From assembly GCA_963804995.1 (NCBI GenBank), contig CAWDSK010000005.1:736001-800000 (forward strand): DNA of 64,000 bases, in the 5' to 3' direction. The notes beneath the pieces were generated by a model. The model searched no databases. It saw nothing but the letters and a program-made list of their open reading frames with translations, and was not told the DNA's origin. Both the position numbers and the translations under genes were made by a program. Every line of letters begins with the position of its first letter. The stretch's first letter is position 1. Source of the stretch: an uncultured Acidobacteriota bacterium (GTDB taxonomy: Bacteria > Acidobacteriota > Terriglobia > UBA7540). Positions 1 to 25,445 of the stretch are shown one piece after another.

Positions 1-159
1 GAGGCTTTGATGGATAGTCAAATGATCCCCTCACAAGAGGATCTGCGGAAGATTATGGAGTACGAGGCTGCGCTTGAAAGGCAGTTTGAAAGAAAGCTGC
101 AACAGCTGGTGGCGTGGCGACGGTCTAAGGGAGAGGTTAGTGCGACCGATGTGCCATAA
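1..159 (+). CDS. 3' end of a hypothetical protein running off the window (…EDLRKIMEYEAALERQFERKLQQLVAWRRSKGEVSATDVP*)
   Basis: Open frame from position 1 to TAA at 157-159 with helical, protein-like composition; not in the ORF track. Confidence 0.6.
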   Translation, partial: EALMDSQMIPSQEDLRKIMEYEAALERQFERKLQQLVAWRRSKGEVSATDVP

Positions 160-511: not shown

Positions 512-1090
512 ATGCTTGACTTGCGTTCCAAGGGGCGGCAGCGGCTCCTAGCCTATTACTTCACCAATCCCGGGGCCCGGTGCCATCTGCGGGACTTGGC
601 GGAGCGCCTGAGCATTGATCCCTCCAACCTATCCCGAGAGCTGCGACGTTTGGAGCGTGAGGGACTTTTCCGGTCGGAAGTAAGCGGCCGGCAGAAGTAT
701 TTTCAGCTCAACCGGGAGTATCCCTTATTCCGCGAGGTCCGTGGCATCGTTGCCAAAACAATCGGTGCGGCGCCTCTGATTGCAAATTCCGTCAGAGCCC
801 TTGCGGACATCGAGGAAGCCTATCTCTACGGGTCGTTCGCGCGAAACCAACAGGATGCTGCAAGTGACATCGATTTGCTCGTGATCGGCGCGCCGCGTGG
901 CGAAGTTCTGGCGGAAGCCATGCGGAAGCTGGAGCGGCAACTGGGGCGGGAAATCAATTATACGGTTATATCGCGCAATGAATTCCGGTCGCGCCGCGCC
1001 CGGAAAGATGCTTTCCTGGAAAGTGTCTGGAGGCATAAGCGCGTTTCGCTCGTCGCTCAACATGAAGAAGCTGAAGCCGCACACAATTGA
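512..1090 (+). CDS. ArsR-like HTH + minimal nucleotidyltransferase (MNT) antitoxin
   Basis: N-terminal wHTH (LRDLAERLSIDPSNLSRELRRLE) and GSFARNQQDAASDIDLLV (GS…DxD) motif; start moved to ATG 512. Confidence 0.85.
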   Translation: MLDLRSKGRQRLLAYYFTNPGARCHLRDLAERLSIDPSNLSRELRRLEREGLFRSEVSGRQKYFQLNREYPLFREVRGIVAKTIGAAPLIANSVRALADIEEAYLYGSFARNQQDAASDIDLLVIGAPRGEVLAEAMRKLERQLGREINYTVISRNEFRSRRARKDAFLESVWRHKRVSLVAQHEEAEAAHN

Positions 1091-1475
1091 CTGGGCGCAA
1101 ATCGAGCGCTTCCTCGCGAGCGCCGACAAGAAGTTGGCCTTGGCGCATAAAATCCTCGCGTTTGATGAGGAGGCATGCCTGCAACAAGCCTACGAAGCGA
1201 TGCTCCGGGCTTCCTTAGGGTTTATGTTCAGCCACGGCTTCCGGGCCAGGAGCCAACCCGGCCATCACATCGCCATCATCGAGTTCGTGCGGGGGCGAAT
1301 TGATCCCAAACACGCCGGTTGGCTCACCGTCTTAGACCGTCTCCGCCGAAAACGGAATATGGCTCTCTATGACGACGCAGGATTCGTCTCCCATCACGAA
1401 GCAGTGGAGGCCCTCGCCTCCGCCCTCCACTTCATAGAGGTCATCCGCACTAACGTCGCTGCAAGAAAACCTTGA
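1062..1475 (+). CDS. HEPN-domain protein, partner of the MNT
   Basis: Overlaps the MNT 3' end; AYEAML…GHH…LRRKRNMALYD pattern typical of HEPN; start ATG 1062 (MKKLKPH). Confidence 0.8.
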   Translation: MKKLKPHTIDWAQIERFLASADKKLALAHKILAFDEEACLQQAYEAMLRASLGFMFSHGFRARSQPGHHIAIIEFVRGRIDPKHAGWLTVLDRLRRKRNMALYDDAGFVSHHEAVEALASALHFIEVIRTNVAARKP

Positions 1476-1577: not shown

Positions 1578-1802
1578 ATGATAGGGCGGGTCTTGGAGCG
1601 AGACGGATGGCGATGTCAGAGGTGCGGCTCGCTGGAGAAACTCCAGGTCCATCACAAGACCAAGAGAAGCCAATTGGGCAACGACTCCCTCGATAACCTC
1701 GTCACCCTGTGTGCCTACTGCCACATGGAAGAGCATGGGCAGCTTTACTATACGGGACCAGCGGTCAGAGTGTGTAACAAGCCCAAGCCACGAAGGAGGT
1801 GA
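1578..1802 (+). CDS. HNH endonuclease, 5'-truncated (repeat copy A)
   Basis: RDGWRCQRCG…VHH…DNLVTLCAYCH; lacks the N-terminal part seen in copies B, C and E. Confidence 0.8.
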   Translation: MIGRVLERDGWRCQRCGSLEKLQVHHKTKRSQLGNDSLDNLVTLCAYCHMEEHGQLYYTGPAVRVCNKPKPRRR

Positions 1803-1895
1803 GGACCCGGCCGGCAGTAATTTCTGGAGTCAACAGTCCGTGGTCCTTAGCAAGTAGCGAGAGACGAGCTCCAGAGGTTGAGCGGAATGAATTCC

Positions 1896-2327
1896 TTACT
1901 TCGCCGCTCGCAAAGGATTAACGACCTTCATACCGTCAAAGTCCTTTTCGTTGGCGGTGACCACGATGCAATCATTCGCTTTGGCCACGGCGGCGACGAT
2001 CATGTCGAGCGCGCTCCGCGGCGTGCCCCTCGCCCTCCCCTCGGCCATCAGCCGCGCCCAGAGGAGACCTGCTTTCTCGTCAAACGGAAGCACGCGACCG
2101 GCGAACAGTGCGAGCGGCCCTTCGGGGCCCGCGAACCATCTCTCCAACTGCCTTCGCTTCTTTCCGGCGGGCCTTTCCAGCACCCCCCGCCAGATCTCGG
2201 CGACGGTCAGGGAGGAAATGAACAGCTCCTGGTCAGCTTGTTCAGACATCCAGGTGATCAGAGATTGCGACGGCACGGGCTTGGTGGCATCGCTGATAAC
2301 ATTAGTGTCGAGGAGATAGCGAGTCAC
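1896..2327 (-). CDS. vapC: PIN-domain toxin VapC
   Basis: YLLDTNVISD…EI…DMIVAAVA…VTANEKDF PIN motif. Confidence 0.92.
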   Translation of the reverse strand: MTRYLLDTNVISDATKPVPSQSLITWMSEQADQELFISSLTVAEIWRGVLERPAGKKRRQLERWFAGPEGPLALFAGRVLPFDEKAGLLWARLMAEGRARGTPRSALDMIVAAVAKANDCIVVTANEKDFDGMKVVNPLRAAK

Positions 2328-2626
2328 AGATCAACCTTACGGCCGCCCGTGACCGAACGGCTGAAGTGGAGATTGGCACCCACCAAAGGCGACCGGCGCA
2401 AGGCCGTAAGGATGCCTCCCTTTTTCGGTGTTTCGCCGGAGATACTCCGGCGGACCGCGTCACGAACCCGCGTAGAGTCCGGCCCTTGCTCCGCGAGCCG
2501 CTTGGCCAGAGAACGAATCAGGTGACGATCCGTCTTGAGCCCCAGCACCTCGAAACGAGCCATGCCTCGGTGGTTGAGGCGTTGGCGGTAGTTCCTCAAC
2601 GCTCGTTTTTGTGATGTGTCGCTCAT
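2324..2626 (-). CDS. Putative antitoxin coupled to vapC
   Basis: 100-aa basic ORF (MSDTSQKRALRNYRQRL) overlapping the vapC start by 4 nt. Confidence 0.75.
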   Translation of the reverse strand: MSDTSQKRALRNYRQRLNHRGMARFEVLGLKTDRHLIRSLAKRLAEQGPDSTRVRDAVRRSISGETPKKGGILTALRRSPLVGANLHFSRSVTGGRKVDL

Positions 2627-2678
2627 CGCGTGCTCCGATATCCAGTAATATAACCATAAAATCCCCGAAGGGCAAGTC

Positions 2679-3041
2679 ATGTTCATAGCAGACCGTCCGG
2701 GATCCACGAAGCAGCAGTTGCAGGGAGCGGTGCACAAGTACTTCACAGGGGAGGAGTACGAGCCCCACCAGATGGTTTACTTCAAGCTGTTTGAGAGTCA
2801 GTTGCCGGTGGTGGAAAGGGCGCTGTACGTGGCCTTGCGGATGGTGGGGACGGAGCGCTCGCGGGGGTATTGCCTGGAACTAGTATGCGCGGATTTTCTG
2901 GCGGGGAGGGGGGAGGAGTCCTCACCTGACGAAATCTTGATGGTGATCCACCGCTTCGTGCATCTGCTGTCGCGGGAGTATCAGGCGCGTCTAGCTTGCC
3001 AGGGCGAGGGCAGGGAATTGGAGACAGCCGGAAGATGCTGA
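2679..3041 (+). pseudogene. 3' part of conserved unknown ORF X (repeat copy B)
   Basis: …YFKLFESQLPVVERALYVA…ERSRGYCLELVCADFLAG…; near-identical segments at 3969-4218 and 14080-14266; no clear RBS or start. Confidence 0.7.
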
Positions 3042-3203
3042 AGGAATTGAAGCGGATCAAGCCGGAGAGCAGATTTACCGGTGCTTGATGAAGCAGGTTT
3101 TCGAGAGCGACGAATGGCGGTGTCAGAAGTGTGGGTCAGTAGAGTACCTGCAGGTGCACCACAAGATCAAAAGGAGCCAGTTGGGCAACGACTCCATCGA
3201 TAA
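3035..3203 (+). pseudogene. HNH endonuclease, frameshifted and 3'-truncated (copy B)
   Basis: 1-nt deletion near 3063 relative to copy C; homology stops after aacgactccatcgataa, before the second CxxC. Confidence 0.75.
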
Positions 3204-3205
3204 AT

Positions 3206-3400
3206 TCAGAACTGCTTGGGGATGCCAGCCTGCTTCAGGACTGCGTTGGCGGTATGGCGGGATAGAATCTTGTGGTCTACCGGGAATTATCGCTGAGTAG
3301 TCGGGCTGTACCAAATCTCGTGATCGCCACGTCCTGGACGCTCATAATAACATCCGTGGGCGCGAAGGATTTCCTTCAGTTTCGGCGTGTAGCTCGCCAT
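3206..3400 (-). pseudogene. hicA: HicA-family toxin with an in-frame TAA at codon 38
   Basis: Manual translation MASYTPKLKEILRAHGCYYERPGRGDHEIWYSPTTQR*FPVDHKILSRHTANAVLKQAGIPKQF*; G-D-H HicA motif; TGATG-coupled to the upstream antitoxin; TAA at 3287-3289. Confidence 0.85.
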
Positions 3401-3645
3401 CAGGACTCGACGGACACCAAAGCAGTTTCTTCACTATGGGCGCGAACCAGAACGTTGACTACCTTTTGCCCCGGTTCCAGCCCGCCGTTTAGCTCAAAAA
3501 GCTCCGGCACTAAAACGCGAACCTTCTCAATCAAGGCATTCATTGACTCGGCTTCTGCCACCAAGCCTGGAATGTCTTCACTCTCCGCGACCCAAACCCC
3601 TGCCTCGGAATCCCAGTGCGCCTCGACTTGATAGGTTCGACTCAT
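3400..3645 (-). CDS. hicB: DUF1902/HicB-like antitoxin
   Basis: WDSEAGVWVAESEDIPGLVAEAES…VPELFELN signature. Confidence 0.85.
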   Translation of the reverse strand: MSRTYQVEAHWDSEAGVWVAESEDIPGLVAEAESMNALIEKVRVLVPELFELNGGLEPGQKVVNVLVRAHSEETALVSVES

Positions 3646-3968
3646 TGCCGGCCACTCCCTACTATATAGAAGACTACCATCTGCTACGGCGTATTACAAC
3701 CGCTCGCGTTCCGCGTCGCGCGAGCCTGGTGTCTTGTAGTCGATTGCTTGCTGCGCATCCCTGGCCATTTCTTCACGAGAATCCCGGAAGGACATGTGTC
3801 ACCAACCGCGCGCATAGCCGGCTGATCAGCCTCTTTGCTTGCACCTTCCAGACTTCTCGCACAACATCCTAACCGCGCACCAAAGCTCGCCCGCTCGTCG
3901 GAATGGAAAGTCCCGGCGGGAGGGCGGGGCGGGAGCCGATCCGCCATTCCCAGGTGGGAAACTCGACA

Positions 3969-4218
3969 CGAGAGCCAGATGCCGATGGTGGAAAGGGCTC
4001 TGTACGTGGCCTCGCGGATGATGGGGACGGAGCGCTCGCGCGGTTATTGTCTGGAACTGGTGTGCGCAGATTTTCTGGCGGGGAGGGGTGAGGAGTCGAC
4101 GCCAGAGGAGATCTTGATGGTGATCCACCGCCTCATGGATCTCCTGCCGCGGGAGTACCAGGCGCGTCTTGCCGGACAAACCAGGGGCAGGGAACTGGAG
4201 ACAGCCGGAAGACGCTGA
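3969..4218 (+). pseudogene. 3' fragment of ORF X (repeat copy C)
   Basis: Homology to copy B begins abruptly at gagagccag (ESQMPMVERALY…). Confidence 0.75.
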
Positions 4219-4223
4219 AGAAA

Positions 4224-4505
4224 GTGGAGCGGATCAAGCTTGGAAGGCAGGTTTACCGGCGGTTGATGAAGCAGGTGCTGGAGCGAGACGGGTGGCGATG
4301 TCAGAAGTGCGGCTCGGTCGAGAATCTTCAGGTTCACCACAAGATCAAGCGGAGCAAGTTGGGCAACGATTCCCTCAATAACCTTGTGACCCTCTGCGCC
4401 CACTGCCACATGGCTGAGCATGGGCAGCTGAGCTACACCATTCCAGCCGCCAGAATCTGCAGCAAGCCTAAACCACGTACAAAGTGCCAATCCCACCCGC
4501 AATGA
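4224..4505 (+). CDS. HNH endonuclease, the most intact copy (copy C)
   Basis: Both CxxC pairs and HH…N present; the ATG seen in copies B and E is ACG here (4213), so GTG 4224 is the probable start. Confidence 0.85.
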   Translation: MERIKLGRQVYRRLMKQVLERDGWRCQKCGSVENLQVHHKIKRSKLGNDSLNNLVTLCAHCHMAEHGQLSYTIPAARICSKPKPRTKCQSHPQ

Positions 4506-4564
4506 TTTGGTAACAATTTGGAGTTGACAAACGCTATATGGTGTCCGGTAGCGTTCTAGGTATG
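4503..4564 (+). promoter_or_regulatory. Conserved promoter-like segment after HNH (TTGACA at 4524-4529)
   Basis: Homologous segment at 15721-15781 (TTGACA 15742-15747). Confidence 0.5.
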
Positions 4565-4694
4565 AGTAGATGTATGTGCGTATTCTCGCCGGACGAAATC
4601 AAATCCAAAAAATCCCAATCGAGGTTTTTATCGCCGGACCCGTGTTGCCCACTGCCATTTCTACATGGGTTTCGAGTTAGGAGGAGTGAAAACC

Positions 4695-5177
4695 GTGAAA
4701 AATAGTAGGGATCGCACTTGCCAGAAAACCAAGGCGGACGGTAGTCGCTGCAAAGTTAGGGTAATCAATGGATCGAGTTTTTGCTACTTTCATGATCCGG
4801 CGAAAGCGCACGAGCGACAGGCGGCGCAGCGGGCGGGCGGAATAGCCCGCAGCCGCCAAGCTGCGGTTCTGCCTCTTGAAACGCCAGATTGGCAGGTTCG
4901 CAAGATTTCCGATGTCGTGGAGATTCTGGGACAAACGCTGAACCAAGTCCGCCGGGGCCAAATTGACCCAAGGGTGGCCAATTCCGTTGCGTACATTTCT
5001 GGAGTTCTGCTCAAGGCGATGGAGAGAGGACCCATGGAAGAGCGGATCACCACTCTTGAGGGGATTCTCAAGCAGCCGCCCTCACAAAGGGTGCCTTTCT
5101 TAGGTCCTTCCGCGCCGGACCGAACCTTCAGTTTCGAAACCCGAAGTACGGAGGATAACGATGGCAAAAAACAGTGA
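4695..5177 (+). CDS. Hypothetical protein with N-terminal C-x3-K-x2-G-x2-C…FC-x2-H zinc-finger (DUF5763-like)
   Basis: CQKTKADGSRC…FCYFHDP; AGGAGG RBS before GTG 4695; C-terminal MEERITTLE coiled coil. Confidence 0.65.
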   Translation: MKNSRDRTCQKTKADGSRCKVRVINGSSFCYFHDPAKAHERQAAQRAGGIARSRQAAVLPLETPDWQVRKISDVVEILGQTLNQVRRGQIDPRVANSVAYISGVLLKAMERGPMEERITTLEGILKQPPSQRVPFLGPSAPDRTFSFETRSTEDNDGKKQ

Positions 5178-6159
5178 CATGAGATTGAAAAGGCTAGAAA
5201 TGGCCATGACACCCAGCCAAGAGGCGATTGCCTATGTGCTGAGCTTATTGGAGCGATTCAATTCGGCGCTTGAGTGCTCAATCTGGTGCCTCGAGGATCC
5301 GGCTGGCGCGTCCGCTAATGACGAGCTAATTGAAAAAGTCCAACACAATGTCCTCAGGGCACTGAAGGATCAACGCCCCGATGAGAATGAGATCAATAAA
5401 GCAGTGATCGAAGCCTATTGGGACGTGGCGTGGCGGCTCAAGATGCTTGTCACAATCAACGAAAGTGTTGAGGGAAAAGTCAAGGATACCCTTCCGCTCT
5501 ATTTTTGGCTCCTCGGCCGGATGCAGTATAAGATTCGCGCTAGCTTTGGCGAAGAACTCCTTCATCGTTGGCTCATTTTGCCCAAGGGAGTTCCCGGTCG
5601 GATTTCCGCTAAAAGTGTGCCCTTTAGTATTAACAAAGAAGTGAGGTTAGGTAGCGGACAACAACACGAGGAGTGGAAGCAGGAAGTACGGAGGCTGCTG
5701 AAAACTCTTTATGCCCTTAGAATCGCTCACGATCAAATGGTGACAGAAGGTTTCGAGGGCCACCCCATTTTGTGGAAGGACACGGGTGAAGCTCTCGCTG
5801 ACCGGACTAGGGATGCGGAGAAACTGCTCGGAACATATACCAACGCGGTCACTATCCAGAGGGAATGCCTCAAAAAGGACGTGCCGTTCAACCTAGAGAT
5901 TTGGGCCATGGACAGCAAGTGGCTAGGCCATGTACGTCGGGAAGTTCAAATAAACCTAGACGAAATCAGGCAGGAAGCCAGATCGGTAGCATCGGAATAC
6001 GTTGCGCATTGGGCTGACATCGCAGGTGCTCAGGTTTTGGCGAGCAATGGTGACCCGAGTGGCGTCATACGTCTTATGAAGCGGAGCGCTGAAACTACGA
6101 AGGCCAGAGATCTAAAGTCAGGAAACCCGGACCTAGGCGGCTGCGATCGAAGTAAATAA
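5161..6159 (+). CDS. Hypothetical helical protein coupled to the upstream gene
   Basis: 332-aa ORF with GGAGG RBS overlapping the previous stop; no recognised motif. Confidence 0.65.
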   Translation: MAKNSDMRLKRLEMAMTPSQEAIAYVLSLLERFNSALECSIWCLEDPAGASANDELIEKVQHNVLRALKDQRPDENEINKAVIEAYWDVAWRLKMLVTINESVEGKVKDTLPLYFWLLGRMQYKIRASFGEELLHRWLILPKGVPGRISAKSVPFSINKEVRLGSGQQHEEWKQEVRRLLKTLYALRIAHDQMVTEGFEGHPILWKDTGEALADRTRDAEKLLGTYTNAVTIQRECLKKDVPFNLEIWAMDSKWLGHVRREVQINLDEIRQEARSVASEYVAHWADIAGAQVLASNGDPSGVIRLMKRSAETTKARDLKSGNPDLGGCDRSK

Positions 6160-6365
6160 AGCCATGCAGGACCCGCTGGTTAATCGCGAAATTGGTTAAG
6201 GTTAGACAATGTAAATAGGCTATCCAATGATGTTGAAACAGCCAGAGGCCTTCGGGGGCCGACGGGAGCTCGGCGGGACGGACGGAATGCATTTGCGAGA
6301 CAGTCTACTTCGGGGCACCAGGATGAGGAGTGCTAACGCTTTGAATAATAGATGGATCCGAGGCA

Positions 6366-6405
6366 AGAGATTACCTAGCAAGACCCCCAGGGGGTGGTAA
6401 TCTCT
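6366..6405. repeat. 10-bp inverted repeat AGAGATTACC-N20-GGTAATCTCT with an inner CCCCC-A-GGGGG hairpin
   Basis: Read directly from the sequence. Confidence 0.7.
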
Positions 6406-6472
6406 CCGCCAGTATCAATCAATTCAGACCCATTTGATTCGTGAAGGAGGACCCAAAGAGAGACTACCCAAA

Positions 6473-6627
6473 TCCACCACAAGATAAAGAGGAGCCATCT
6501 GGGCAACGATTCCCTAGATAATCTTGTCACCCTATGTGCTTACTGCCACATGGAAGAGCACGGGCAGTTGAGTTACACCATCCCAGCCGCCAGAGTGTGC
6601 AGCAAGCCCACGCCACGAAAAAAGTGA
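6473..6627 (+). pseudogene. HNH 3' fragment (repeat copy D)
   Basis: HHKIKRSHLGNDSLDNLVTLCAYCHMEEHGQLSYTIPAARVCSKPTPRKK*; the following ~50 bp matches the flank of copy A. Confidence 0.8.
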
Positions 6628-6675
6628 AGATCCTGCCTGCCGGAATCTCCGGAGTTGAAGATCTGCGGTCACTGG

Positions 6676-7485
6676 TCAATGGGGGCAGACAATCTCTTGG
6701 GGTCTTTGCAGTAGGCCTGGCCTGTAACTATACTGCCATAAGACCAGAGACCAATCCGCTCCTTCTGCTGCAACGGCCGCAACGTACCCAGCGCCTGGGG
6801 CCAGGGCGCAAAGAGACCATTGGCCGGCTTCGGTGTTGTCATTGTTGTTGATGGGCAGGTTGGTTAGTTGGCCTGGAGCGAGCGAAACTGCGAAGCTGGC
6901 AAGATCGATGCTGAGGCCTTCGCCCCGGGCTTTGATGTACGCTTCCTTGCGTGTCCAGCACTGAAAGAACGCTTCGGTTTGAGCAATCTTCGGAAGCTCG
7001 CGGAGCGCAGTGACCTCCTGGGCTGAAAAGAAGCGCTCCGCCACACGGTCGCTGTTCGGGAATGGATGGACACGCTCCAGATCAACGCCCACTTCGCGGC
7101 GCCAAGCGAACGCGAAGAGCGCAAGCCCGTGAGAATGAGAAAGGTTGAAGCGTAAGTACTCGGTTCCACTGCCGGGGACCAAGGCCGGTTTGCCGTGGGC
7201 ACCACCGCAAAATCGCAAATCACCAGGACTAGTCCGCAGATACCGAGCCAACAAAGCACGAAGGGTCCCTCGCGCGGCAATGTAACGGGCAGCGTCCGTG
7301 GGGGAGTAGAATTTCTCCGCCCTTGCCTGCTCGTCTGCTGATAGCGTCTCACGCATCTGCAGGACCGCAGTTGAACCAACATCGAGATCAGCGCGCCACA
7401 CATGCACTTCGTCATCGCGCAACGTGGCCGGCTCAAGCACAGCCTGCCATAAGGACACGGTATGTTCCATCGTTCGATTCGTCAT
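6676..7485 (-). CDS. sfp: Sfp-type 4'-phosphopantetheinyl transferase
   Basis: GKP, FNLSHS, VGVDLE and WTRKEAYIKARGEG motifs. Confidence 0.93.
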   Translation of the reverse strand: MTNRTMEHTVSLWQAVLEPATLRDDEVHVWRADLDVGSTAVLQMRETLSADEQARAEKFYSPTDAARYIAARGTLRALLARYLRTSPGDLRFCGGAHGKPALVPGSGTEYLRFNLSHSHGLALFAFAWRREVGVDLERVHPFPNSDRVAERFFSAQEVTALRELPKIAQTEAFFQCWTRKEAYIKARGEGLSIDLASFAVSLAPGQLTNLPINNNDNTEAGQWSLCALAPGAGYVAAVAAEGADWSLVLWQYSYRPGLLQRPQEIVCPH

Positions 7486-10400
7486 GTGGGCCCAAGGTGA
7501 GTCTGGGTGAGTTGGCCCTCTCCCTGAAAAGCACCCAGGTAAGTTCGAATGTAGTCGGCCACCACACCGATATGCTGTGTCCGGCAGGTAACGTGATCGC
7601 CCGGCAGCTCGTGAACATCCACCTGCGAGACCAACCTCCCCCAGCCGGCCGTGGGGTCAGTCGGATATTCGTGTAGCAGGGACTTGGTCCGTAACAGCAC
7701 GATGCGGCCCTGCAAAGGTTTTGGGCGGTAGTTCATCAAGATGGCACCAAACCGTAGATCACGAAGAGACTCCAGGGGATCATCGAAAGCCGGGGAGGGG
7801 ACACCCAACTCCTCGGGCGGAGTCCCCAGCAGCCGCAGAACCTTTCTCCTCGCCGTCTGCAAAGGGAGAGCAACGAGTGCCCCCATGCCCTGGCGCAACG
7901 CGGCTTTGGCGCGTAACACATGATTGCGAACCCGGCCGTAGGCAAGATCCTGCCCATTGTCATCGACCCTGGCCAGCCAGCCCACGCTGCGGATCAACGC
8001 CTTCAGCCAGCCGAAGTGCGCCGGAACTGCAGTGTCGAGCAGAATCACCAATCCTACCTCGCGACCCTGCTGCACCATCTGCCGCGCCATCTCATAGGCT
8101 ACATTCCCGCCGTTGCAGAAGCCGCCCAGCAAATAAGGACCTTGAGGCCGAAGTGCGACCAGGTGCCGGATATTCTCCTCAGCCATCGCTTCAACACTAG
8201 GAAGTAATGGCTCGCCGCCGAACCCATTTGGCATTACGCCAAAGAACGGTTGGTCGGGGCCGAGCAACCGCGCCAATTTCCGGCAGTAGAGCCCACCCGT
8301 CGAATCGCCATGGAGGAAAAAGAAAGGCACATGAGAACCTCCGGGTTGAATGGGCACGATCGCCGACTTCATCTCTTTACTACTCTCGGCTCGCAGGCAC
8401 TCTGCCAGATGTTGAATGGTTGCCTCGGCAAACAAGGTTGAGAGCGGAAGTCGCCTGCCGCAGGCCTCCACGATCCGGCCCATCATGCGCACGGCAAGGA
8501 GAGAGTGACCGCCCAAATCGAAGAAGTCGTGCTGGATACCAATCGGGTGCACGTCGAGAAGCTCTTCCCAGATTTCTGCCAATTGCCATTCAAGCACGTC
8601 GCGGGGCTCAACGTAGCGATCCTCAACCCGTAACTGTCGGCTCTCAACGGGTAGCGCCCGGCGGTCAACCTTCCCACTCGAGGTAAGGGGCAGGGCCTTC
8701 AAGGTTGTGTAGTCGGAGGGCACCATATAGTCGGGCAGCTTTTGCTTTAGAAAATCCCGCAACGCTTTCCAGGCGGGCGCACTTTCCGGACAACGGGGCA
8801 CCACGTAAGCTACCAGGCGCTTTCCGCCCGGGCTCTCCTCCCGAACCACGACGGCCGCGGCCGATACTGCCGGGTGCTCTGCCAAGGCCGACTCGATTTC
8901 TCCCAATTCAATGCGGAAACCCCGAACCTTTACCTGATTATCAAGGCGGCCCAAGAACTCAATATTGCCGTCCGGCAAGTAGCGGCACAAGTCGCCGGTT
9001 TTGTAGAGACGAGCCCCAGGTTGGATGCTAAAGGGATCAGGAATAAATTTCTGACAGGAAACCTCGGGCCGGTTCAGGTACCCACGGGCCAGCCCATCTC
9101 CCCCGATGCATAATTCGCCGGCAACCCCGATTGGGACAGGCTGCAAATACCGGTCGAGAATGTACACGCGGGTGTTGGCGATGGGCCTGCCGATGGGAAT
9201 CGATCTGGCCAAGGGGCTTTGGTTGCGGGGAATCCGATAGCAACATGCAAAAACTGCGCTCTCCGTCGGCCCGTACCCGTTTACCAACTCCGTGTTGGGC
9301 AGCAGCGACAAGGCACGACAAATATCAGGAACGGAAAGCGCCTCCCCTCCCACGAGCAACTGCGAAACGGGTAAGAGTGCATCCGGAGCGGCATCAATCA
9401 CCGTGCTGAACAGCGAAGGCGTAAACCACAAGGTCGTCACCTTCTCTTTCTTGATTACGGCGCGGAGTTGCCCCAGATCCGGGATACGCTGCGGAATAAG
9501 CACGCAGCGCCCTCCGTGCAGGAGGGCGCCCCAAATCTCGAAGGTGCTCGCATCGAAGGAAATCGAGCCGTACTGGAGAAACACCTCATCCGGCCCGAAG
9601 TGGATGTAATCCGTTCCACACAGCAGGCGCACAATGCCGCGGTGGAGAACCTCGACTCCCTTCGGGGTTCCTGTGGACCCAGAGGTGTACAGCACGTAGG
9701 CCACATGATCGGGCTTCACTTCGAAGCGGGGATTGTGATTATCGGCCCCGGGGTCGGAATCCTCTAACCTGTCGAGCCAGACCACCCTTAGGTCCTGTTG
9801 AGGCAGCCCATGTTTCAGTCGCTCCTGGGTCAACAATACCTTAATTCCCGAATCCCCCAACATGAAAGCCAATCGTTCTTTCGGATAGGTAGGGTCCAGA
9901 GGAACAACTGTACCTCCCGCCTTGAGAACTCCCAGTAGTCCTACCACCATCTCCAGCGAGCGATCCACGAAGAGCCCCACTCGGGTATCCAATCCAACGC
10001 CCCAGCCTCGAAGTTGATGAGCTAGCCGATTGGCCTGACGGTTCAATGCTGCATAGGTCAGACGGTGCTCTTCCAAGGTAACCGCCACGGCTTCCGGCCG
10101 TCGCTCGGCCTGCGCCTCGAACAGTTCCTGAAGGGTCGAATCTCGCGGATACTCTACGTTCGTACGATTCCATTCCACCAGAATCTGATTCCGCTCGGTG
10201 GGAGTCAGCAAGGGAAGCGAGGCCAAGTGAGCGTCGGGTTCGGTGACGATGGCCCCGAGCAGCGTACGGTAGTGGCTAGCCATGCGCTCGATCGTGCCCT
10301 GATCAAAAAGATCGGCGTTGTAAACGAAAGAACACTTCAACTCCCGGCCCCTGGGGAGGATCTCAAGGGTGAGATCGCAGGGCGCAACCGGGACCTCGAA

Positions 10401-11651
10401 CTCGAACTCACTCACCTGCAGGCCGGGAATCTCGATCTTTTCCTCAGGCAGGTTTTCAAGATTAAATACCACCTGGAAAAAGGGCGTTGTGCTCAGGTTT
10501 CGATCCGGGCGCGGAGTCTCCAGTACTTGCCCAAACGGCAAATCCTGGTGGCTGTAAGCGCCGCGGCAGGTCTCGCGAACACGCCCGAGCAGTTCCCGAA
10601 ATGTGGGATTACCCGACAGGTTTGTCCGAAGAACTAGAGTGTTGAGGAAGAGCCCGATCAACTTCTCCGTCTCCACCCAATTCCGGCCTGCTGTCATCGA
10701 TGCGATGGCTATATCTTCAGATCCCGTATAACGCGAGAGCAGCACCTGGAAGGCCGCCAGGAGTGGCATGAACAGCGTGGCATTCTCCTGCCGGCCCAGT
10801 GCTTTCAGAGCATCGGCGAGCCGCTCCGGCAAGAGGACTTCGGCACATCCGCCCTGGTGCGACTGAGCGCTTAAACGGGGCCGGTCCGTCGTTAGGTCCA
10901 CGGGAACGCAGCCGCTCAATTGCTTTTTCCAGTAAAGAAGCTGGCGTTCGAGCAGTTCGCCGCCCACGCGCTGACGCTGCCAGAGAGCGAAATTCCCATA
11001 CTGGATTGGGAGCTCCGCGAGTGCAGGCGAACTCCCCGTAGTTAATGCGCCGTAGAGATTTGCGAACTCGTCGGCAAAGACCCGGGCTGACCATGCGTCA
11101 AAAGCGATGTGGTGGAATACGAGGAGCAAGACGTGCTCCTGCTCGCATAGCCGGAAGAGCGTGGCTCGCAAAAGGGGATCCTTGGCCAAATCGAAGGGCC
11201 GGAGAGCCTCCTCCGTGGCCAATCCCTTGGCATGCGACTCGCGCTCGGTGGGAGCCAGTTTAGAGAGCTCAATTAGGCGCAGGTCCAGAGCCAGGCTTGC
11301 AGATATAACCTGTGCAGGTTGACCGTCGCGGGTAAAGAAGCGCGTGCGCAGAACCTCGTGACGATCGATGATGGTTTGCAGGGCCTGCCGGAGGGCGGCC
11401 TCGTCAAGTGACCCCGTCAGACGCCGGGCGAACGGGCGATTATATGCGGGACTCCCTGGCTCCAACTGGTCGAAAAGCCAGAGCTTCTCCTGCGCGAACG
11501 AAAGCGGTAGAGAGCCCCGGTCAGCCAGCCGCGGAATAACGCGGGGAACGCGGCGGGACTGGAGCTTCTCCCGCCAACTTGCATCGAGCTGCGTGGATTC
11601 CTGCCGGGGAGTGTCCTCAGGCTCGGGCGGGATGGCATCCGTGCTTTTCAC
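7482..11651 (-). CDS. NRPS, C-A-PCP-TE
   Basis: C: LSFAQEKLW, HHIAFDAWS; A: YTSGSTGTPKG, YGPTE, YKTGD; PCP: FFDLGGHSLL; TE: GGFCNGG, PGDH; start set at GTG 11651. Confidence 0.93.
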   Translation of the reverse strand: MKSTDAIPPEPEDTPRQESTQLDASWREKLQSRRVPRVIPRLADRGSLPLSFAQEKLWLFDQLEPGSPAYNRPFARRLTGSLDEAALRQALQTIIDRHEVLRTRFFTRDGQPAQVISASLALDLRLIELSKLAPTERESHAKGLATEEALRPFDLAKDPLLRATLFRLCEQEHVLLLVFHHIAFDAWSARVFADEFANLYGALTTGSSPALAELPIQYGNFALWQRQRVGGELLERQLLYWKKQLSGCVPVDLTTDRPRLSAQSHQGGCAEVLLPERLADALKALGRQENATLFMPLLAAFQVLLSRYTGSEDIAIASMTAGRNWVETEKLIGLFLNTLVLRTNLSGNPTFRELLGRVRETCRGAYSHQDLPFGQVLETPRPDRNLSTTPFFQVVFNLENLPEEKIEIPGLQVSEFEFEVPVAPCDLTLEILPRGRELKCSFVYNADLFDQGTIERMASHYRTLLGAIVTEPDAHLASLPLLTPTERNQILVEWNRTNVEYPRDSTLQELFEAQAERRPEAVAVTLEEHRLTYAALNRQANRLAHQLRGWGVGLDTRVGLFVDRSLEMVVGLLGVLKAGGTVVPLDPTYPKERLAFMLGDSGIKVLLTQERLKHGLPQQDLRVVWLDRLEDSDPGADNHNPRFEVKPDHVAYVLYTSGSTGTPKGVEVLHRGIVRLLCGTDYIHFGPDEVFLQYGSISFDASTFEIWGALLHGGRCVLIPQRIPDLGQLRAVIKKEKVTTLWFTPSLFSTVIDAAPDALLPVSQLLVGGEALSVPDICRALSLLPNTELVNGYGPTESAVFACCYRIPRNQSPLARSIPIGRPIANTRVYILDRYLQPVPIGVAGELCIGGDGLARGYLNRPEVSCQKFIPDPFSIQPGARLYKTGDLCRYLPDGNIEFLGRLDNQVKVRGFRIELGEIESALAEHPAVSAAAVVVREESPGGKRLVAYVVPRCPESAPAWKALRDFLKQKLPDYMVPSDYTTLKALPLTSSGKVDRRALPVESRQLRVEDRYVEPRDVLEWQLAEIWEELLDVHPIGIQHDFFDLGGHSLLAVRMMGRIVEACGRRLPLSTLFAEATIQHLAECLRAESSKEMKSAIVPIQPGGSHVPFFFLHGDSTGGLYCRKLARLLGPDQPFFGVMPNGFGGEPLLPSVEAMAEENIRHLVALRPQGPYLLGGFCNGGNVAYEMARQMVQQGREVGLVILLDTAVPAHFGWLKALIRSVGWLARVDDNGQDLAYGRVRNHVLRAKAALRQGMGALVALPLQTARRKVLRLLGTPPEELGVPSPAFDDPLESLRDLRFGAILMNYRPKPLQGRIVLLRTKSLLHEYPTDPTAGWGRLVSQVDVHELPGDHVTCRTQHIGVVADYIRTYLGAFQGEGQLTQTHLGPT

Positions 11652-11671
11652 AAAGATTTCAATCCTGCAAC

Positions 11672-13516
11672 CTAATTTGAGGATGGCCGCTCGGTCTCGT
11701 CGCGACTCACTCTCTCGCCTTCTAGCTGCAGCTTGGCACCCAGCACCAGAGTCTGGTCCGCAATCGTCGGTGCATCCAGGAAGTCGAGCAAAGTAATGTC
11801 CACGTCCAACTGTTGGCACACGCGAGCGACGGTCCGCGCAGCCAGCAGCGAATCACCGCCCAGGTCGAGAAAGCGCTGATGGATGCCGACGGAAGGGATC
11901 CTAAGCACCTCGCACCAGATCTCGGCAAGGAATTTCTCTGCGGGTGTGCGCGGAGCCACGCTCTCGCTTGATTGGTCGGAAACAGCCACCGCCTGCTCCA
12001 CCAAGCCCAGCTTTTCCGCCAAGCCGATTCGCTGGGGTTTGCCTGTCGGCCCCAGCGGGATGGCATTGACCGCGAGGATGCGGCGGGGGACCTTGAAGTG
12101 GGCCAGGCGTGCGGCCACGACCTGGCGGAGCTGCTTTTCAGTGACACTTGTATCGCGGAGGACAACCGCTGCCGCTACCTCCTGCCCAAGTGACTTATCT
12201 GGCATGGCAAAGACCACTGCTTGGGCGACAGCCGGGTGCTGCAATAAGACCTCTTCCACCTCGCGTGGCGAGACCTTTTCGCCCCCCCGATTGATGATCT
12301 CCTTGATGCGGCCCTCGATGTAGAGGTAGCCGTCCGCGTCCAGGCGGCCCAGGTCTCCCGTGCGGAACCAGCCATTAGTGAAGGCCTGGTCTGCAACCTG
12401 ATGGGCGTAACCGTGCATGACGTTCGGCCCACGCACAACGATCTCAGCCACTTCACCTTGTGCCAGCAGTCGCGCGCCGCCTTTTTCCATGATGGCAATT
12501 TCTGTGCCGGTCGCCACGCCCACGGAACCCGGCTTGCGGATTTTGGGCGGAAGCGGGCTGGATGCAATCTGGTGGGCGGCCTCGGTCATTCCATAAGCCT
12601 CAACAACCGGGACGCCGAACACACTCTCCAGCTCCGCCATCAGCGTGGGGGAAAGCGGAGAAGAGCAGGAGCGGATGAATCGCAAGCGCTCCCGGTGGAT
12701 GGCTTGGTGGTTCTGAGCACCGCGGGCCAGAATTGCCCGGTGCATGGTTGGCACGGCGGTATACCAGGTCGGTTGGAAAGCGGCCGCCCAGTCGAAAAAG
12801 CGTGGCGCATCAAAGCCGGGCGTCGTGACTACTCCTGCCCCGGCGCACAGTGAAGACAAGACCGATGCCACGAGACCGTGAATGTGGAAAAGCGGCATGA
12901 TGTTCAGGCACCGATCGGACGGAGTGAGTGCCAGCGCGTTGCGGATGTGGTCGGCGGAGGCGCACAGGTTCTGGTGGGTGAGCGGAACCATCTTCGGCCG
13001 TGACGTGGTTCCAGAAGTATGGAGCACAAGGGCGATGTCCTCCGCCTCAACAGTTCCGGGAGGGGACGCGGGCGTGGGGCTGACTCCCTGAAAACTGAAA
13101 AGTCCTGCCGCATCTTCCCATTTCGGGGCAATTTCGATTACACGAATTCCACGCCTTCGGGCTACTTCAATGGCGGGTGAGATCACTCCGGCTTGGACTA
13201 CTAGCGCCTTGGCCTCCAAGTCCGACAGGTAGAATTCAAATTCGGAGGCGCCATAGGCCGGATTCAGCGGGGCGGCTACGGCGCCGCAGGCAATTGAAAG
13301 AACCCCCACCGCCATCTCTGGACCGTTGGGCAGGACGATCGCCACCTTGTCGTTGCGATGGATGTCGAACGAGCTCAGGCAATTCACAACCTCATGGACC
13401 TGTGTGATCAACCGCCCGAAGGTTAACGGAGTACGCCCCGGCGCCAGGATCGCCTCTGAATCAGGCGAAAGCCGAGCGTGACTCTCGAGCAGTTGGTAGG
13501 TCGACGAAAACGTCAT
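11672..13516 (-). CDS. Oxalate-CoA-ligase-like (AAE3/Pcs60/Fum10 family) adenylating enzyme fused to a carrier protein (A-PCP loading module)
   Basis: LHTSGTTSRPK, PLFHIHGLV, TWYTAVPTMH, RFIRSCSS, EAYGMTEAAHQ; C-terminal FLDLGGDSLL. Confidence 0.85.
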   Translation of the reverse strand: MTFSSTYQLLESHARLSPDSEAILAPGRTPLTFGRLITQVHEVVNCLSSFDIHRNDKVAIVLPNGPEMAVGVLSIACGAVAAPLNPAYGASEFEFYLSDLEAKALVVQAGVISPAIEVARRRGIRVIEIAPKWEDAAGLFSFQGVSPTPASPPGTVEAEDIALVLHTSGTTSRPKMVPLTHQNLCASADHIRNALALTPSDRCLNIMPLFHIHGLVASVLSSLCAGAGVVTTPGFDAPRFFDWAAAFQPTWYTAVPTMHRAILARGAQNHQAIHRERLRFIRSCSSPLSPTLMAELESVFGVPVVEAYGMTEAAHQIASSPLPPKIRKPGSVGVATGTEIAIMEKGGARLLAQGEVAEIVVRGPNVMHGYAHQVADQAFTNGWFRTGDLGRLDADGYLYIEGRIKEIINRGGEKVSPREVEEVLLQHPAVAQAVVFAMPDKSLGQEVAAAVVLRDTSVTEKQLRQVVAARLAHFKVPRRILAVNAIPLGPTGKPQRIGLAEKLGLVEQAVAVSDQSSESVAPRTPAEKFLAEIWCEVLRIPSVGIHQRFLDLGGDSLLAARTVARVCQQLDVDITLLDFLDAPTIADQTLVLGAKLQLEGERVSRDETERPSSN

Positions 13517-13576
13517 GGGATTGTTGACCTAAATGGACGTGTGCTATTTGCTTTCTACCGTTTTGCGCCCAGAATG

Positions 13577-13759
13577 TTAAGCGAAAAGCACTGGCACGGC
13601 AAGCCAGACCTCCATGCTTCCTCCGCGCAGACCCACAGGGAACTCCGCGAGGCTCTCGATGGCATCGCACAGTCCGTCGAACCATTCCCGCGTCGCGCCC
13701 CGAGCGATCCCGTCGAGGTCCCGCTCAGCCCGCTTTCGATATAGGACGCGGTACGCCAA
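13577..13759 (-). pseudogene. parE: ParE/RelE toxin, truncated after about 41 aa
   Basis: MAYRVLYRKRAERDLDGI…WFDGLCDAIESLAEFP followed by unrelated sequence. Confidence 0.7.
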
Positions 13760-14021
13760 AGTGTTTCTTTCTCAATTGTGCATGAACCTGTTTAGCAGGA
13801 CGGCCCTCCCCCTTTTCCGCCAGGGCTTCGTTCACGGCCTCGATGGTTTCGAAGCGATCTTTCCACTCTTCATAAGCTTCGGCATCGAACACGACGAAGC
13901 GCGCTTTGCCCTGCACAGTCAATACCAGGGGCCTATGGGTTTTCTTGAGCAGGCGGGCGAACCGGGCCGTTTGGCGTTTGAAGGTCGTCAGAGGATGGAT
14001 GTCCTGGGCTACGTCAATCAT
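13725..14021 (-). CDS. Phd/YefM antitoxin
   Basis: MIDVAQDIHPLTTFKRQT…PLVLTVQGKARFVVFDAEAYE. Confidence 0.85.
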   Translation of the reverse strand: MIDVAQDIHPLTTFKRQTARFARLLKKTHRPLVLTVQGKARFVVFDAEAYEEWKDRFETIEAVNEALAEKGEGRPAKQVHAQLRKKHFGVPRPISKAG

Positions 14022-14079
14022 TTCTACGCACCTGAAAAGCATCTTATCAAGTGCTAAGCAGGGAGGCAAGGTTTTCCAC

Positions 14080-14514
14080 GCGCTCGCGGAGGTACTGCCT
14101 GGAACTGGTGTGTGCAGATTTCCTGGCGGGGAGAGGTGAGGAGTCGACACCCGAGGAGATCTTGATGATGATCCACCACCTCGTGCATCTGCTGCCGCGG
14201 GAGTATCAGGCGCATCTTGTTGGCCAAATCGCAAGATGGAAATTGGAGACCCCCGGAAGATGTTGAATAAAGTCAAGCGGATCAAGCTGGGAAAGCAGCA
14301 GATCTACCGGCGGTTGATGAAGCAGGTCCTGGAGCGAGACAGTTGGCGATGTCAGAAGTGGGGCTCGCTGGAAAACTTCCAGGTCCACCACAAGATCAAG
14401 AGTAGCCAGCGGGGAAATGACGCGCTCGAAAGCCTCGTGACCCTCTGTGCTCACGAACATGGCAGAGCGTGGGCAGCTTTTCTACACAGTCCCGGCTGCC
14501 AGAGTGTGCAGCAA
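14080..14514 (+). pseudogene. ORF X 3' fragment + HNH pseudogene (repeat copy E)
   Basis: YCLELVCADFLAG… ends at 14266; HNH starts at ATG 14260 with Cys>Trp (CQKWG) and a frameshift in the second CxxC. Confidence 0.8.
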
Positions 14515-14624
14515 GGTGACCGATTCCGCCAGAACCGCGCCTTTCAGTGAAACGGTCGGGATTGGCCTTGAATGAAGGGTTACCTGCGCTCATTGAATGC
14601 GAAAGTCGGTAAGCCTGGTCATTC

Positions 14625-15017
14625 TCACCAGATCGTGTGAAGCGCTTTCGACCGACGGATATCACGATCGGCCGTAACCAGAGGTAGGGCCTCAGCCAGC
14701 GCGGTAGCCCCGATCATTCGATCCGCCGGATCACTGGGATAAGCTGCGGGGAGTCCATGGGCGCGCACACAGGCACGGCCAGTGATTGGCAGGACAACGA
14801 ATCGGCTCTCGACTTCACTCAAGAAGGATTCCAGGCTGATGTCGAGATGGATGCGTCCTTTACTCGCGAGGGTTGTCAACTCCAAGAGAGTGATATCGGA
14901 AATTGCCACGCCATCTCCCTTCGCACGCGCCTTGTCGATGGCGGTTCTTGCCTTCCTGGAGAGCTGGCTTGGATCAAACGCCAGCCAGACGACTACGTGT
15001 GTGTCGACGAGAATCAC
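14625..15017 (-). CDS. vapC: PIN-domain toxin VapC
   Basis: ILVDTHVVVW…ISDITLLE…DPADRMIGATA…LVTAD. Confidence 0.92.
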   Translation of the reverse strand: MILVDTHVVVWLAFDPSQLSRKARTAIDKARAKGDGVAISDITLLELTTLASKGRIHLDISLESFLSEVESRFVVLPITGRACVRAHGLPAAYPSDPADRMIGATALAEALPLVTADRDIRRSKALHTIW

Positions 15018-15241
15018 TTGAGGTTCCCCCAGTCTTCGATAGCGGGCGAAATGACGTTGCCGATAACCGCCCCCTTGCCACGGAGGAAGTGGTAGATCTC
15101 GTCTGTACCTTTGCCGGCGGGGACAAGCTTCGCCACGGGCCTGCCGTGTTTAGTGATCACTACAGTCTGTCTCTTGGCCTGAACCTCGTCCATGACCGCA
15201 AGGCAATGTGCCTTGAACGAACCCGCTGCCATTGTTTTCAT
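15014..15241 (-). CDS. Phd/YefM antitoxin
   Basis: FKAHCLAVMDEV…VVITKHGRPVAKLVP. Confidence 0.9.
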   Translation of the reverse strand: MKTMAAGSFKAHCLAVMDEVQAKRQTVVITKHGRPVAKLVPAGKGTDEIYHFLRGKGAVIGNVISPAIEDWGNLK

Positions 15242-15611
15242 CCAGGACTCCTTATCATAGTCATTATACCATGGTCATAATCGCGTCCGACTAAGAAACG
15301 CCCTCCTATGGCCGGGACCGTGGATGGAGCGCAGAGCCGCTGGCTCCACGCTGCCGGGGAAGTGCTGCCTCTGGACGCAAGCAACGAAGCCCAGGGGATC
15401 CGATTCGATATTAGACCCCCTCAAGACAGCCTGGCGCGTCTTGGCCTACCAAAGCTGTAAACACCGCGTTCGTGTGGGCCACCATGCGCGTCTGCTTCCA
15501 ATTTGGGCTACCCGTTCTTTAGACTCTCCCGCCTGTTTCCACGAAGCACTCATGGCAGAAGCAGGTCAGGGAAGGTTTCTCACACCAGTCCTCCTGCGAG
15601 AACAGGAATCT

Positions 15612-15781
15612 TGTGCTCACTTTCATATGGGCTGAGCATGGACAGCTTCTCTATTCAGTCCCAGCCGCCAGAGTGTGCAGCAAGCCCAAACCACGTACGA
15701 AGTGCCAATCGCAGCCGCGGTGATTTGGTGACGGTTTCGGGTTGACAACCCATACATGGTGTTCGGTACGTTCTGAGTATG
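15612..15781 (+). repeat. HNH extreme 3' fragment plus promoter-like tail (repeat copy F)
   Basis: Matches 4394-4564, including …KPKPRTKCQS and the TTGACA-containing tail. Confidence 0.8.
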
Positions 15782-17709: not shown

Positions 17710-18168
17710 TCATTGATCTTGGTAGACATTCAAGAGCTGTAGCCGCGTGGCCTCAAGGCGCTCCTCGACGACATGCGCGAATCGTTTCAGGAGTTCGTAA
17801 CCCAGATCGTGGTCGCGTTCGGCTTTTTCGCGAAGACACTTTCCATCCGCGGCAAAGGCGCGAGTGCCCTCGATTGTTTGGGCGGAGAACTTCCAACGGT
17901 AAGGAGGAAAAAGCCAAGACCACCCCAGGATTTCACCGGCGTGGAGGGTTAGGATAGTTAGGGGGCCACGTCGTTCGGAATGTATCCGCAGCGCCACTTT
18001 CCCTTGGCGGATCAAGTAGAAATGATTGGCCTCTTCGCCTTCCTGGAAAATAATCTTTCCAGCCTCGAAGCGCACGTTGGAAACACAGCCGACGATGGTC
18101 TCGATGTGTCGCGCGGGCAGATCATGGAAAAACGGATGCGCACTCAGAATACCTTGTAGAGTTTCCAT
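17710..18168 (-). CDS. Stand-alone cyclic-nucleotide-binding domain protein
   Basis: IFQEGEEANHFYLIRQGKV…GEILGWSWLFPPYRWKF; no HTH. Confidence 0.88.
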   Translation of the reverse strand: METLQGILSAHPFFHDLPARHIETIVGCVSNVRFEAGKIIFQEGEEANHFYLIRQGKVALRIHSERRGPLTILTLHAGEILGWSWLFPPYRWKFSAQTIEGTRAFAADGKCLREKAERDHDLGYELLKRFAHVVEERLEATRLQLLNVYQDQ

Positions 18169-18377
18169 GATGCCCCTCCTCCATCGATGGGATCAGATTG
18201 GGTTTTGGTTCTTCCCCCGACCTTGGCGCCACGGCTGGATGCGACTTCCGCCCGTACGCGCCTTTCCTGGGAGGAGGCGGATTTTGTTACGCCCCGCACT
18301 GCGCCCACCCACCTGTTTTAATCCGGTTGCGGCGTAACGCGCCCACACAGAATGGGACTTCGGGTTACCCGAGCCCG

Positions 18378-18836
18378 CTACTTTTCGACCGCCACAAGGT
18401 GCACTGAAAGTGCCTCTACGCGATTCTCGATAATTTGCGCAAATCGTTTCATGAGTTCGTACCCAAGGTCGTGGTCTTCGTCACATCTGGCACAAACGCT
18501 CCTTCCGTCCAAGGAGATGGCCCGTGTGACATCGAGCGCTTTGGCCGTGAATTTCCAGCGGTAGGGCGGAAAAAGCCACGACCATCCGATGATGTCTCCT
18601 TCTTCGAGGGTCATCAGCGTCAAGGGTTCGACACGGTAGGAAACAAGTTGCAATGCCACCCTGCCGTTCCGAATCAGATAACAACGCTGCGCCGGTTCAC
18701 CCTCTTCGAAGATTAAGTCTCCGGGCTCGAACCTCACGACGGTTGCGCTCTCGACGAGGGTTCGGAGATGTTGTTCCTTCATACCCCTAAGCAATGGATT
18801 TTCGCCCAACACCTTCTCTAAAGTTATAGTCTCCAT
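18378..18836 (-). CDS. Stand-alone cyclic-nucleotide-binding domain protein (paralog)
   Basis: IFEEGEPAQRCYLIRNGRV…GWSWLFPPYRWKF; start at ATG 18836. Confidence 0.88.
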   Translation of the reverse strand: METITLEKVLGENPLLRGMKEQHLRTLVESATVVRFEPGDLIFEEGEPAQRCYLIRNGRVALQLVSYRVEPLTLMTLEEGDIIGWSWLFPPYRWKFTAKALDVTRAISLDGRSVCARCDEDHDLGYELMKRFAQIIENRVEALSVHLVAVEK

Positions 18837-18849
18837 GGTTCTCCTCCCC

Positions 18850-19368: not shown

Positions 19369-19427
19369 GCTCGCACCTCATGCAAATAGATCAACCACGA
19401 TCGGCTGACGGGAGGCAGAGAATCGCG

Positions 19428-20939: not shown

Positions 20940-20974
20940 AGGGTCGTCCCTCTGCACTTACCGTTTGACCGCGA

Positions 20975-22098: not shown

Positions 22099-22122
22099 CG
22101 TAACCTCCTGCCAGTCTCAGTT

Positions 22123-22178
22123 GATGTAGCGCCGACCTTCAGGCCGGCATGTGCTGACCTCAAGGTCAGCGCTACATC
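22123..22178. repeat. REP-like palindrome (GATGTAGCGC…GCGCTACATC)
   Basis: Intergenic inverted repeat with internal hairpins. Confidence 0.7.
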
Positions 22179-22196
22179 CGACGGCCGCGTTCGGCC

Positions 22197-24817: not shown

Positions 24818-24966
24818 GCCCATCTCCTCAGCGCCTGTGCAAAAACGTCGGACTGGAGCAGCAGTCTCTGCGGCTCTGCCGCCCCGCTGTGCGGAAAGGC
24901 TTCGCCTTTCCGGACCACATGTGCCCGAACCAACCTCCTTCGTGCGGAGGTCCATTTGAATCTACT

Positions 24967-25147: not shown

Positions 25148-25181
25148 AGTAATTTCAAAATAATGCGCCCAGTCCGCACAC

Positions 25182-25437: not shown

Positions 25438-25445
25438 CAGGCTCC

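Follow-up and report, generated by a model that had tools for sequence, protein, structure and literature searches.

The 64,000-nucleotide window analysed here (positions 736001 to 800000 of contig C5 in G000, a 7.55-Mb, nine-contig assembly of an uncultured Acidobacteriota bacterium, 92% complete) carries near its start an array in which partial copies of two adjoining genes, open reading frame (ORF) X and an HNH gene, alternate with toxin-antitoxin (TA) and other genes. Our analysis indicates that this locus is probably a displacement array formed behind a mobile five-gene recombination module. We call the complete module the head (an XRE repressor gene, then O189, O145, a PD-(D/E)XK exonuclease gene, X and HNH) and its partial copies pieces; reference (ref) positions count from the ATG of X as 1, with HNH at 693-968. 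The full head stands first in the array, both breakpoints of the pieces vary, and the pieces are 5'-truncated remainders of related former heads, each still joined to its own cargo.

A preliminary description of the window had listed six plus-strand X-HNH copies with different internal starts, and alignment to the reference head recovered all six, each with its own start (Table 1). Their nhmmer E-values, from 4e-19 to 1e-155, show that they are not chance matches. The description of most copies as frameshifted holds for B, E and F and in part for C, where two indels compensate each other and the HNH ATG is gone, but not for the coding parts of A and D. Homology at D, said to stop about 3 bp from the sfp stop codon, runs about 28 nt into the 3' end of sfp, and the 86 nt 5' of this piece also occur in another locus (L027), joined there at ref 611. 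The conserved "tail" 3' of HNH is a decayed MNT antitoxin gene (47% at the amino-acid level, E 1e-9) and therefore old cargo rather than a recombination site; it was rejected as a candidate recombination site or RNA on this likeness.

The array had been taken to lie within the window, but it begins upstream, in the adjoining stretch L001 (G000:C5:716001-736000). A complete head is found there 2.7-5.9 kb before the window start, and the head-proximal cargo (Uma2, Phd/ParE, O246 and the MNT/HEPN-like pair) is all sense-oriented. Of the two things to be sought upstream, a full-length X gene and a recombinase, the first was thus found, within a head that has candidate annealing and exonuclease genes, and the second was not, within 400 kb of the array. 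This is the single head in G000: tBLASTn of the genome gave three matches beyond the window, namely the X-HNH of this head, in full length, at C5:732287-733254 and, at C6:361817-363339, two X pieces that flank an antisense TacA/GNAT TA pair.

Local tandem duplication or an assembly error, with TA genes landing in a neutral stretch of junk DNA, is a very improbable origin of the array and already largely refuted. The genome is rich in TA genes (59 PIN and 23 Phd matches), a test of the G000 pieces as one clade was not rejected, and no run spans the whole array: two DNA runs with a small share of this genome and no RNA run are listed, and none of the recurring metagenome contigs checked covers it as a single independent record. 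Against this, the copies are 10-33% diverged, the same architecture and cassette junctions occur in many assemblies, and junctions A|vapBC, D|sfp and E|vapC are spanned by contigs of an independent metagenome. Since the pieces are only 67-90% identical to each other (often being closest to copies in other genomes) and three junctions recur, misassembly, raised early as a way in which the array could fall, is not evident.

The pattern recurs in other genomes of Terriglobia, where the genes between pieces are likewise mostly TA genes. G000, 80 metagenome loci and 9 genome loci were searched with a DNA profile of the whole head; duplicates (L110-112, L131, L147, L160, L176) were dropped before heads were counted, and the counts include G000 and some loci that have a contig or sample series in common and are not fully independent. 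After dereplication, 21 close-clade heads had at least 3 kb of sequence on their downstream side; 14 of them carry X/HNH/tail pieces there, and 0/37 of these pieces are antisense. Upstream, such pieces were seen at 0/15 close-clade heads (Fisher p = 6e-5 versus downstream, for loci that are not fully independent), O189 5' pieces being present instead in 4/15. Among 114 non-edge profile matches, the start lies within X/HNH in 78, at the start of the head in 32 and between these, in O145/PDDEXK, in 4; the 78 piece starts spread over ref 32-925, and piece ends range from 310 to beyond 1068. A fixed recombination site was rejected because starts and ends both vary, and the start clusters at about 447-474 and 688, considered as such sites, are junctions passed on by descent or the borders of conserved blocks. 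The distant clade is different, with a solitary head in 21 of 23 loci; the other two, both in G034, have pieces, beside which inspection of the gene calls showed TA-like genes. The outcome that would have spoken against an array, solitary copies elsewhere, is therefore seen in the distant clade and not in most close-clade heads.

Comparison of loci revealed eight pairs with the same cargo and the same piece-to-cargo junction. One is a near-identical duplicate; in three (L134/L161, L153/L088 and L175/L096) the same cargo and 3' junction come behind a full head at one locus and behind a piece at the other; and four have different piece starts, in one case by only 28 nt. Because the same cargo and junction follow either a full head or a piece, the pieces are what is left of former heads after loss from the 5' side. 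Cargo-to-piece junctions are also common to arrays of different order (L113/L151, L145/L155, L158/L089, L085/L096), and therefore blocks of cargo plus piece travel between strains. Frameshift indels are more frequent in pieces (3.7 per kb, n = 39) than in heads (1.6 per kb, n = 42). The earlier view of X-HNH as the homology scaffold between cargo units is supported.

Table 1. Features of the array in the window and in L001, directly upstream; cargo identities are from Pfam and upstream genes from Pfam/PHROG unless remarked otherwise
Feature	Position	Strand	Remarks
XRE helix-turn-helix (HTH) repressor	L001:14149-14526	-	Pfam/PHROG
Near-consensus sigma70-type promoter	L001:14520-14548		11-bp inverted repeat behind promoter
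O189, Rad52/Sak-fold annealing-protein candidate	L001:14573-15142	+	predicted fold
O145, DUF669-like	L001:15033-15470	+	ESM similarity
PD-(D/E)XK exonuclease	L001:15506-16294	+
Full X, 232 amino acids (aa)	L001:16287-16985	+	ParB-type HTH fold
Intact HNH	L001:16979-17254	+
Uma2	L001:17408-17989	+	sense cargo
HNH remnant, roughly 50 nt	near L001:18200
Phd + truncated ParE	L001:18748-19198	+	sense cargo
O246, last gene of upstream part	L001:19260 to window 159	+	window 1..159 = 3' end
HTH-nucleotidyltransferase (MNT-like) + HEPN-like partner	window 512..1475	+	Pfam for MNT; partner by inspection, no Pfam match
Piece A	window 1579-1908	+	ref 745-1076; HNH + tail; coding part without frameshift
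VapC (PIN, 1896-2327) + putative antitoxin	window 1896..2626	-	antitoxin without Pfam match
Piece B	window 2700-3203 (profile match to about 3207)	+	ref about 357-866 (aligned 2700-3192 = 357-851); frameshifted, HNH truncated
HicA + DUF1902/HicB-like antitoxin	window 3206..3645	-	Pfam
Piece C	window 3969-4604	+	from ref 450 (aligned 3969-4508 = 450-989); about 100 nt more common to C and F
DUF5763-like ORF (weak match) + 332-aa ORF of no known family	window 4665..6159	+	sense cargo
Piece D	window 6468-6704	+	ref 809-1045; coding part without frameshift
Sfp-type phosphopantetheinyl transferase, non-ribosomal peptide synthetase (NRPS; C-A-T-TE), A-T gene	window 6676..13516	-	Pfam
Degenerate ParE-like ORF	window 13577-13759	-	no Pfam match
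Phd antitoxin	window 13725-14000	-	Pfam
Piece E	window 14080-14515	+	ref 513-947; frameshifted
Phd antitoxin + VapC (PIN)	window 14625..15241	-	Pfam
Piece F	window 15606-15781	+	from ref 869 (aligned 15606-15726 = 869-989); frameshifted, decayed, last of array

We propose that an incoming related head with its cargo would pair by homology within the resident head, while its far end would be joined non-homologously inside the resident X/HNH, by homology-facilitated illegitimate recombination (HFIR). Alternatively, a circle bearing a head fragment could integrate; the data do not separate the two routes. In either case the new cargo would become head-proximal and the old cargo would be pushed downstream behind a 5'-truncated head piece, and later homologous recombination between pieces could shuffle whole blocks between strains. 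Arrays would persist where the cargo consists of TA modules, which resist loss. HFIR is the model for immunity arrays of type VI secretion systems (T6SS; PMC5361080) and the circle is the model for Rhs arrays (PMC2935791). The exonuclease, annealing protein and DUF669-like partner of the module are, judging by gene content, the likely catalysts, since phage systems of this kind built on single-strand annealing proteins (SSAPs) tolerate diverged DNA (PMC8093625); host RecA could also act. A role of the HNH as a nickase is speculative.

Several points weigh against displacement as proposed. No age gradient was found along the arrays (rank versus identity, rho 0.03, p = 0.86, n = 39), and no same-species comparison caught a single addition. 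Microhomology at the junctions is weak (mean 1.2 nt versus 0.65 in the null, from 21 rows that are partly redundant or misplaced), and HFIR joins usually show more. A tree with five G000 pieces as a single clade was not rejected (p-AU 0.19), O189 is assigned to the SSAPs on weak fold scores and without a Pfam match, and 77 of the 82 PIN/Phd matches in G000 lie outside the array, so TA genes spread by other routes too. HFIR itself is reported as rare in PMC5361080. Several joins have short unaligned linkers; Ku was not found in 5/5 genomes searched, and Ku-type end joining was rejected on that ground.

Tandem accretion of whole integrative elements at one site (remnants of prophages, satellites or integrative and conjugative elements, ICEs), followed by deletions that spared the TA genes and the adjoining head end, is in our judgement unlikely. 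It would account for the integrase, type IV secretion or terminase genes near some heads (L041, L088, L089, L106, G054), for a decayed second whole head behind the first in L035, for the O189 5' pieces upstream in 4/15 loci, and for one head copy in genome G110 that sits exactly at a tRNA-Leu 3' end. However, that copy has no att duplication, recombinase matches occur in only 3/35 head loci (8 queries), only 4/114 profile matches start in O145/PDDEXK, and the X query gave a single distant match (32%) in viral contigs. In G000 the 104 kb made up of L003, L001 and the window contain no tRNA, and the lack of an integrase noted earlier extends to all tyrosine and serine recombinases within 400 kb of the array, the nearest on the continuous contig C5 being PF00589 matches at 107,476 and 1,173,257 and a PF00239 match at 1,173,966. 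Genes for DUF5681 plus a large terminase, or for a VirD4/VirB11-like pair with an integrase, were observed 3' of some heads (L106:13736-15659; L041:7533-10758; L198:3300-5465); these terminase and VirD4-type neighbours hint at satellite or ICE hosts for some head copies.

G110 (99% complete; L185-L207) contains 12 dispersed solitary head copies that are 87-94% identical and have ragged ends, with no recombinase match in the stretches searched. Empty sites were examined for two of them. Copy j is the insertion at tRNA-Leu, of roughly 7.4 kb. Copy c, at which no fixed end was seen, stands in place of most of a host gene of roughly 3.8 kb that four relatives have intact. One further copy is situated upstream of a tRNA-Pro, at a distance of about 180 bp. 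For G000 no empty site was available, the flanks not being syntenic in 28 genus relatives. The copies in G110, the host gene replaced by copy c and the strictly conserved five-gene order, with repressor and promoter, would fit a head that is an autonomous integrase-free element whose own HNH, exonuclease and annealing protein make copies of it along with flanking DNA, the arrays being re-insertions into a resident copy. This reading overlaps with displacement and adds autonomy; as an alternative we hold it to be quite unlikely, given that one of only two empty sites is a tRNA site, that G000 has a single head and that the activity is a prediction from sequence. That the head represents a new type of mobile element is a real possibility. 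The fuller proposal, on the doubtful side of possible, is a new class of integrase-free element whose HNH, exonuclease and Rad52-like annealase would produce ragged insertion, replacement of host DNA, carriage of flanking genes and re-insertion into resident copies, and so shufflable TA/defence arrays.

The likely enzymes of displacement were examined through predicted structures. O189 is a good candidate for an annealase rather than a demonstrated member of the Rad52/Sak/Erf superfamily, and only a candidate because no SSAP Pfam family matches it: 0/62 members of its alignment match PF04098, PF06378 or PF04404, and its profile found nothing under E 0.28 among PDB sequences. In Foldseek RAD52 was the first row, weakly (E 0.015). 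The Z scores of the model against RAD52 and double-stranded RNA-binding domains (dsRBDs) are nearly the same (7.8 vs 7.9), with a root-mean-square deviation (rmsd) of 5.0 to RAD52 and 97 residues aligned to it versus about 70 to dsRBDs; the nearest named ESM clusters are Slr1353_N (0.88) and SSAP_Sak (0.85). A four-copy model predicted head-to-tail self-association through two different faces (score 0.65 versus 0.00 for the best control), a mark reached by 20/30 solved pairs and 1/23 monomers; contacts agreed between runs by at least 76% with pLDDT of at least 79. The predicted self-association could reflect likeness to solved rings. O145 has an ESM similarity of 0.95 to a cluster in which 27% of members carry DUF669, with a putative role in binding single-stranded DNA. 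Residues 1-128 of X match the DNA-binding core of Spo0J/ParB/KorB (Z 8.8, rmsd 2.6, 104 aligned).

Compared to known systems, the locus appears by analogy to work like an Rhs or T6SS displacement array, and it is a member of neither family, nor an integron. It has a full copy first, co-oriented 5'-truncated copies downstream only and a payload swap in three head/piece pairs, while the expected greater age of distal units was not seen in 39 pieces. In the Rhs C-terminal displacement arrays of Jackson et al. (2009, PMC2935791), as here, an intact gene is followed by 3' core fragments of variable length with different payloads, relics are frameshifted and the model has no dedicated recombinase. 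There the anchor is a toxin core, the fragments are identical to it and the payloads are in-frame tips, whereas here a DNA-binding gene and HNH that close a recombination operon serve as the anchor, the pieces are diverged and the cargo consists of TA, NRPS and other genes that are free-standing and lie in either orientation. The repeat (X, HNH and decayed MNT) is not the 3' core of a secreted polymorphic toxin, which separates it from Rhs and contact-dependent inhibition (CDI) loci; the likeness to orphan polymorphic-toxin cassettes drawn in the preliminary description holds as an analogy. For Vibrio T6SS effector-immunity arrays (Kirchberger et al. 2017, PMC5361080), the proposal is likewise an upstream homologous anchor, an illegitimate join displacing older genes and a 3' gene remnant, and later block transfer by homologous recombination; that anchor is a sedentary cluster with immunity genes kept, unlike a mobile multi-copy module with apparent annealing and exonuclease genes of its own. 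Phage modules of SSAP, single-stranded DNA-binding protein (SSB) and exonuclease, sometimes with HNH, of the Rad52/Erf/Sak3 superfamily (PMC8093625) correspond to the head in the candidate annealase of dsRBD-like fold, the SSB-like gene, PD-(D/E)XK, HNH and divergent repressor; they differ in that the head has no Pfam SSAP match, stands alone among host genes in up to 12 copies per genome, and has no virion or replication genes in view at the G000 locus. Integron cassette arrays also have TA-rich small units downstream of a fixed head. The comparison with them does not extend to a fixed crossover, since piece starts and ends vary widely, nor to an integrase, no IntI tyrosine recombinase lying beside the array, and the cargo here is in both orientations.

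X was found in 20 of 151 genomes of the class and in at least 5,103 protein clusters, O189 in at least 8,000, and the closest relatives of X are Terriglobia/Acidobacteriota sequences. The five-gene module is widespread in Acidobacteria and apparently undescribed, no paper with a title or abstract opening describing it having been found in literature coverage outside subscription journals. To our knowledge displacement arrays are known only from secreted-toxin loci; the present case would extend them to a mobile recombination module that gathers TA and abortive-infection (Abi) genes with no nearby integrase, a way for TA modules without mobility genes to spread that can be put to the test. For Acidobacteria it would also provide a candidate recombineering system of native origin, and its many one-sided illegitimate joins would be a record left by nature. 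Polysaccharide-cluster genes occur in 9/35 head loci versus 7/300 G000 control windows (with queries from G000 and loci that are not independent), an association that, if the head is indeed an integrase-free element, would make it a driver of island turnover.

The cargo first listed for the window (vapBC, hicBA, NRPS with phd/parE, and phd/vapC) was confirmed by Pfam, except parE; its ORF is similar to one in L113 that is ParE-like (E 2e-5) and has a weak likeness to the ParE with a Pfam match in L001 (E 0.008). Opposite orientation is not the rule: in 17 other loci with 86 gap ORFs, a hand count gave 23 Pfam-supported TA/Abi modules, 18 sense and 5 antisense. L155 has six pieces with TA modules in most gaps. 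In G000, 5 of the 82 PIN/Phd matches fall inside the 18.5-kb array versus 0.2 expected, for a region chosen after the fact. The MNT/HEPN-like cassette also occurs 3' of a head piece in L031, at 82% identity. The hicA gene has an internal TAA at codon 38 and its antitoxin is intact; contigs of another sample differ in letters near this stop (window 3206-3400). A further PIN/antitoxin pair lies at window 55953-56599 with no X-HNH piece near.

A mirror pattern was observed upstream of some heads, with O189 5'-end pieces parted by small unknown ORFs (L151:4485-7259, L155:4983-5393, L088:5839-6260, L089:5890-6330, L161:342-715); the O189 pieces suggest displacement on the left side as well. ORF "Y", of 175 aa and no known family, is recurrently joined to X at about ref 474 in many genomes (L093:5729-6250, L027:9391-9918, L025, L028, L097, L184), and the same junction without the full ORF is found at G000 C6:363337. 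O246 has no Pfam or PHROG match and nine further tBLASTn matches in G000, and it sits divergently upstream of several distant-clade heads. Upstream of the array, L003 and L001:1-13641 contain a polysaccharide-biosynthesis cluster followed by a PqqD/radical-SAM/S24/ABC-transporter cluster resembling those for ribosomally synthesized and post-translationally modified peptides (RiPP-like), a stretch present in few genus relatives. On the other side, window 17710-33296 holds, by inspection, Crp-type regulators and a membrane hydrogenase-like cluster; this stretch is unrelated to the array, and its start is also conserved among relatives in the genus.

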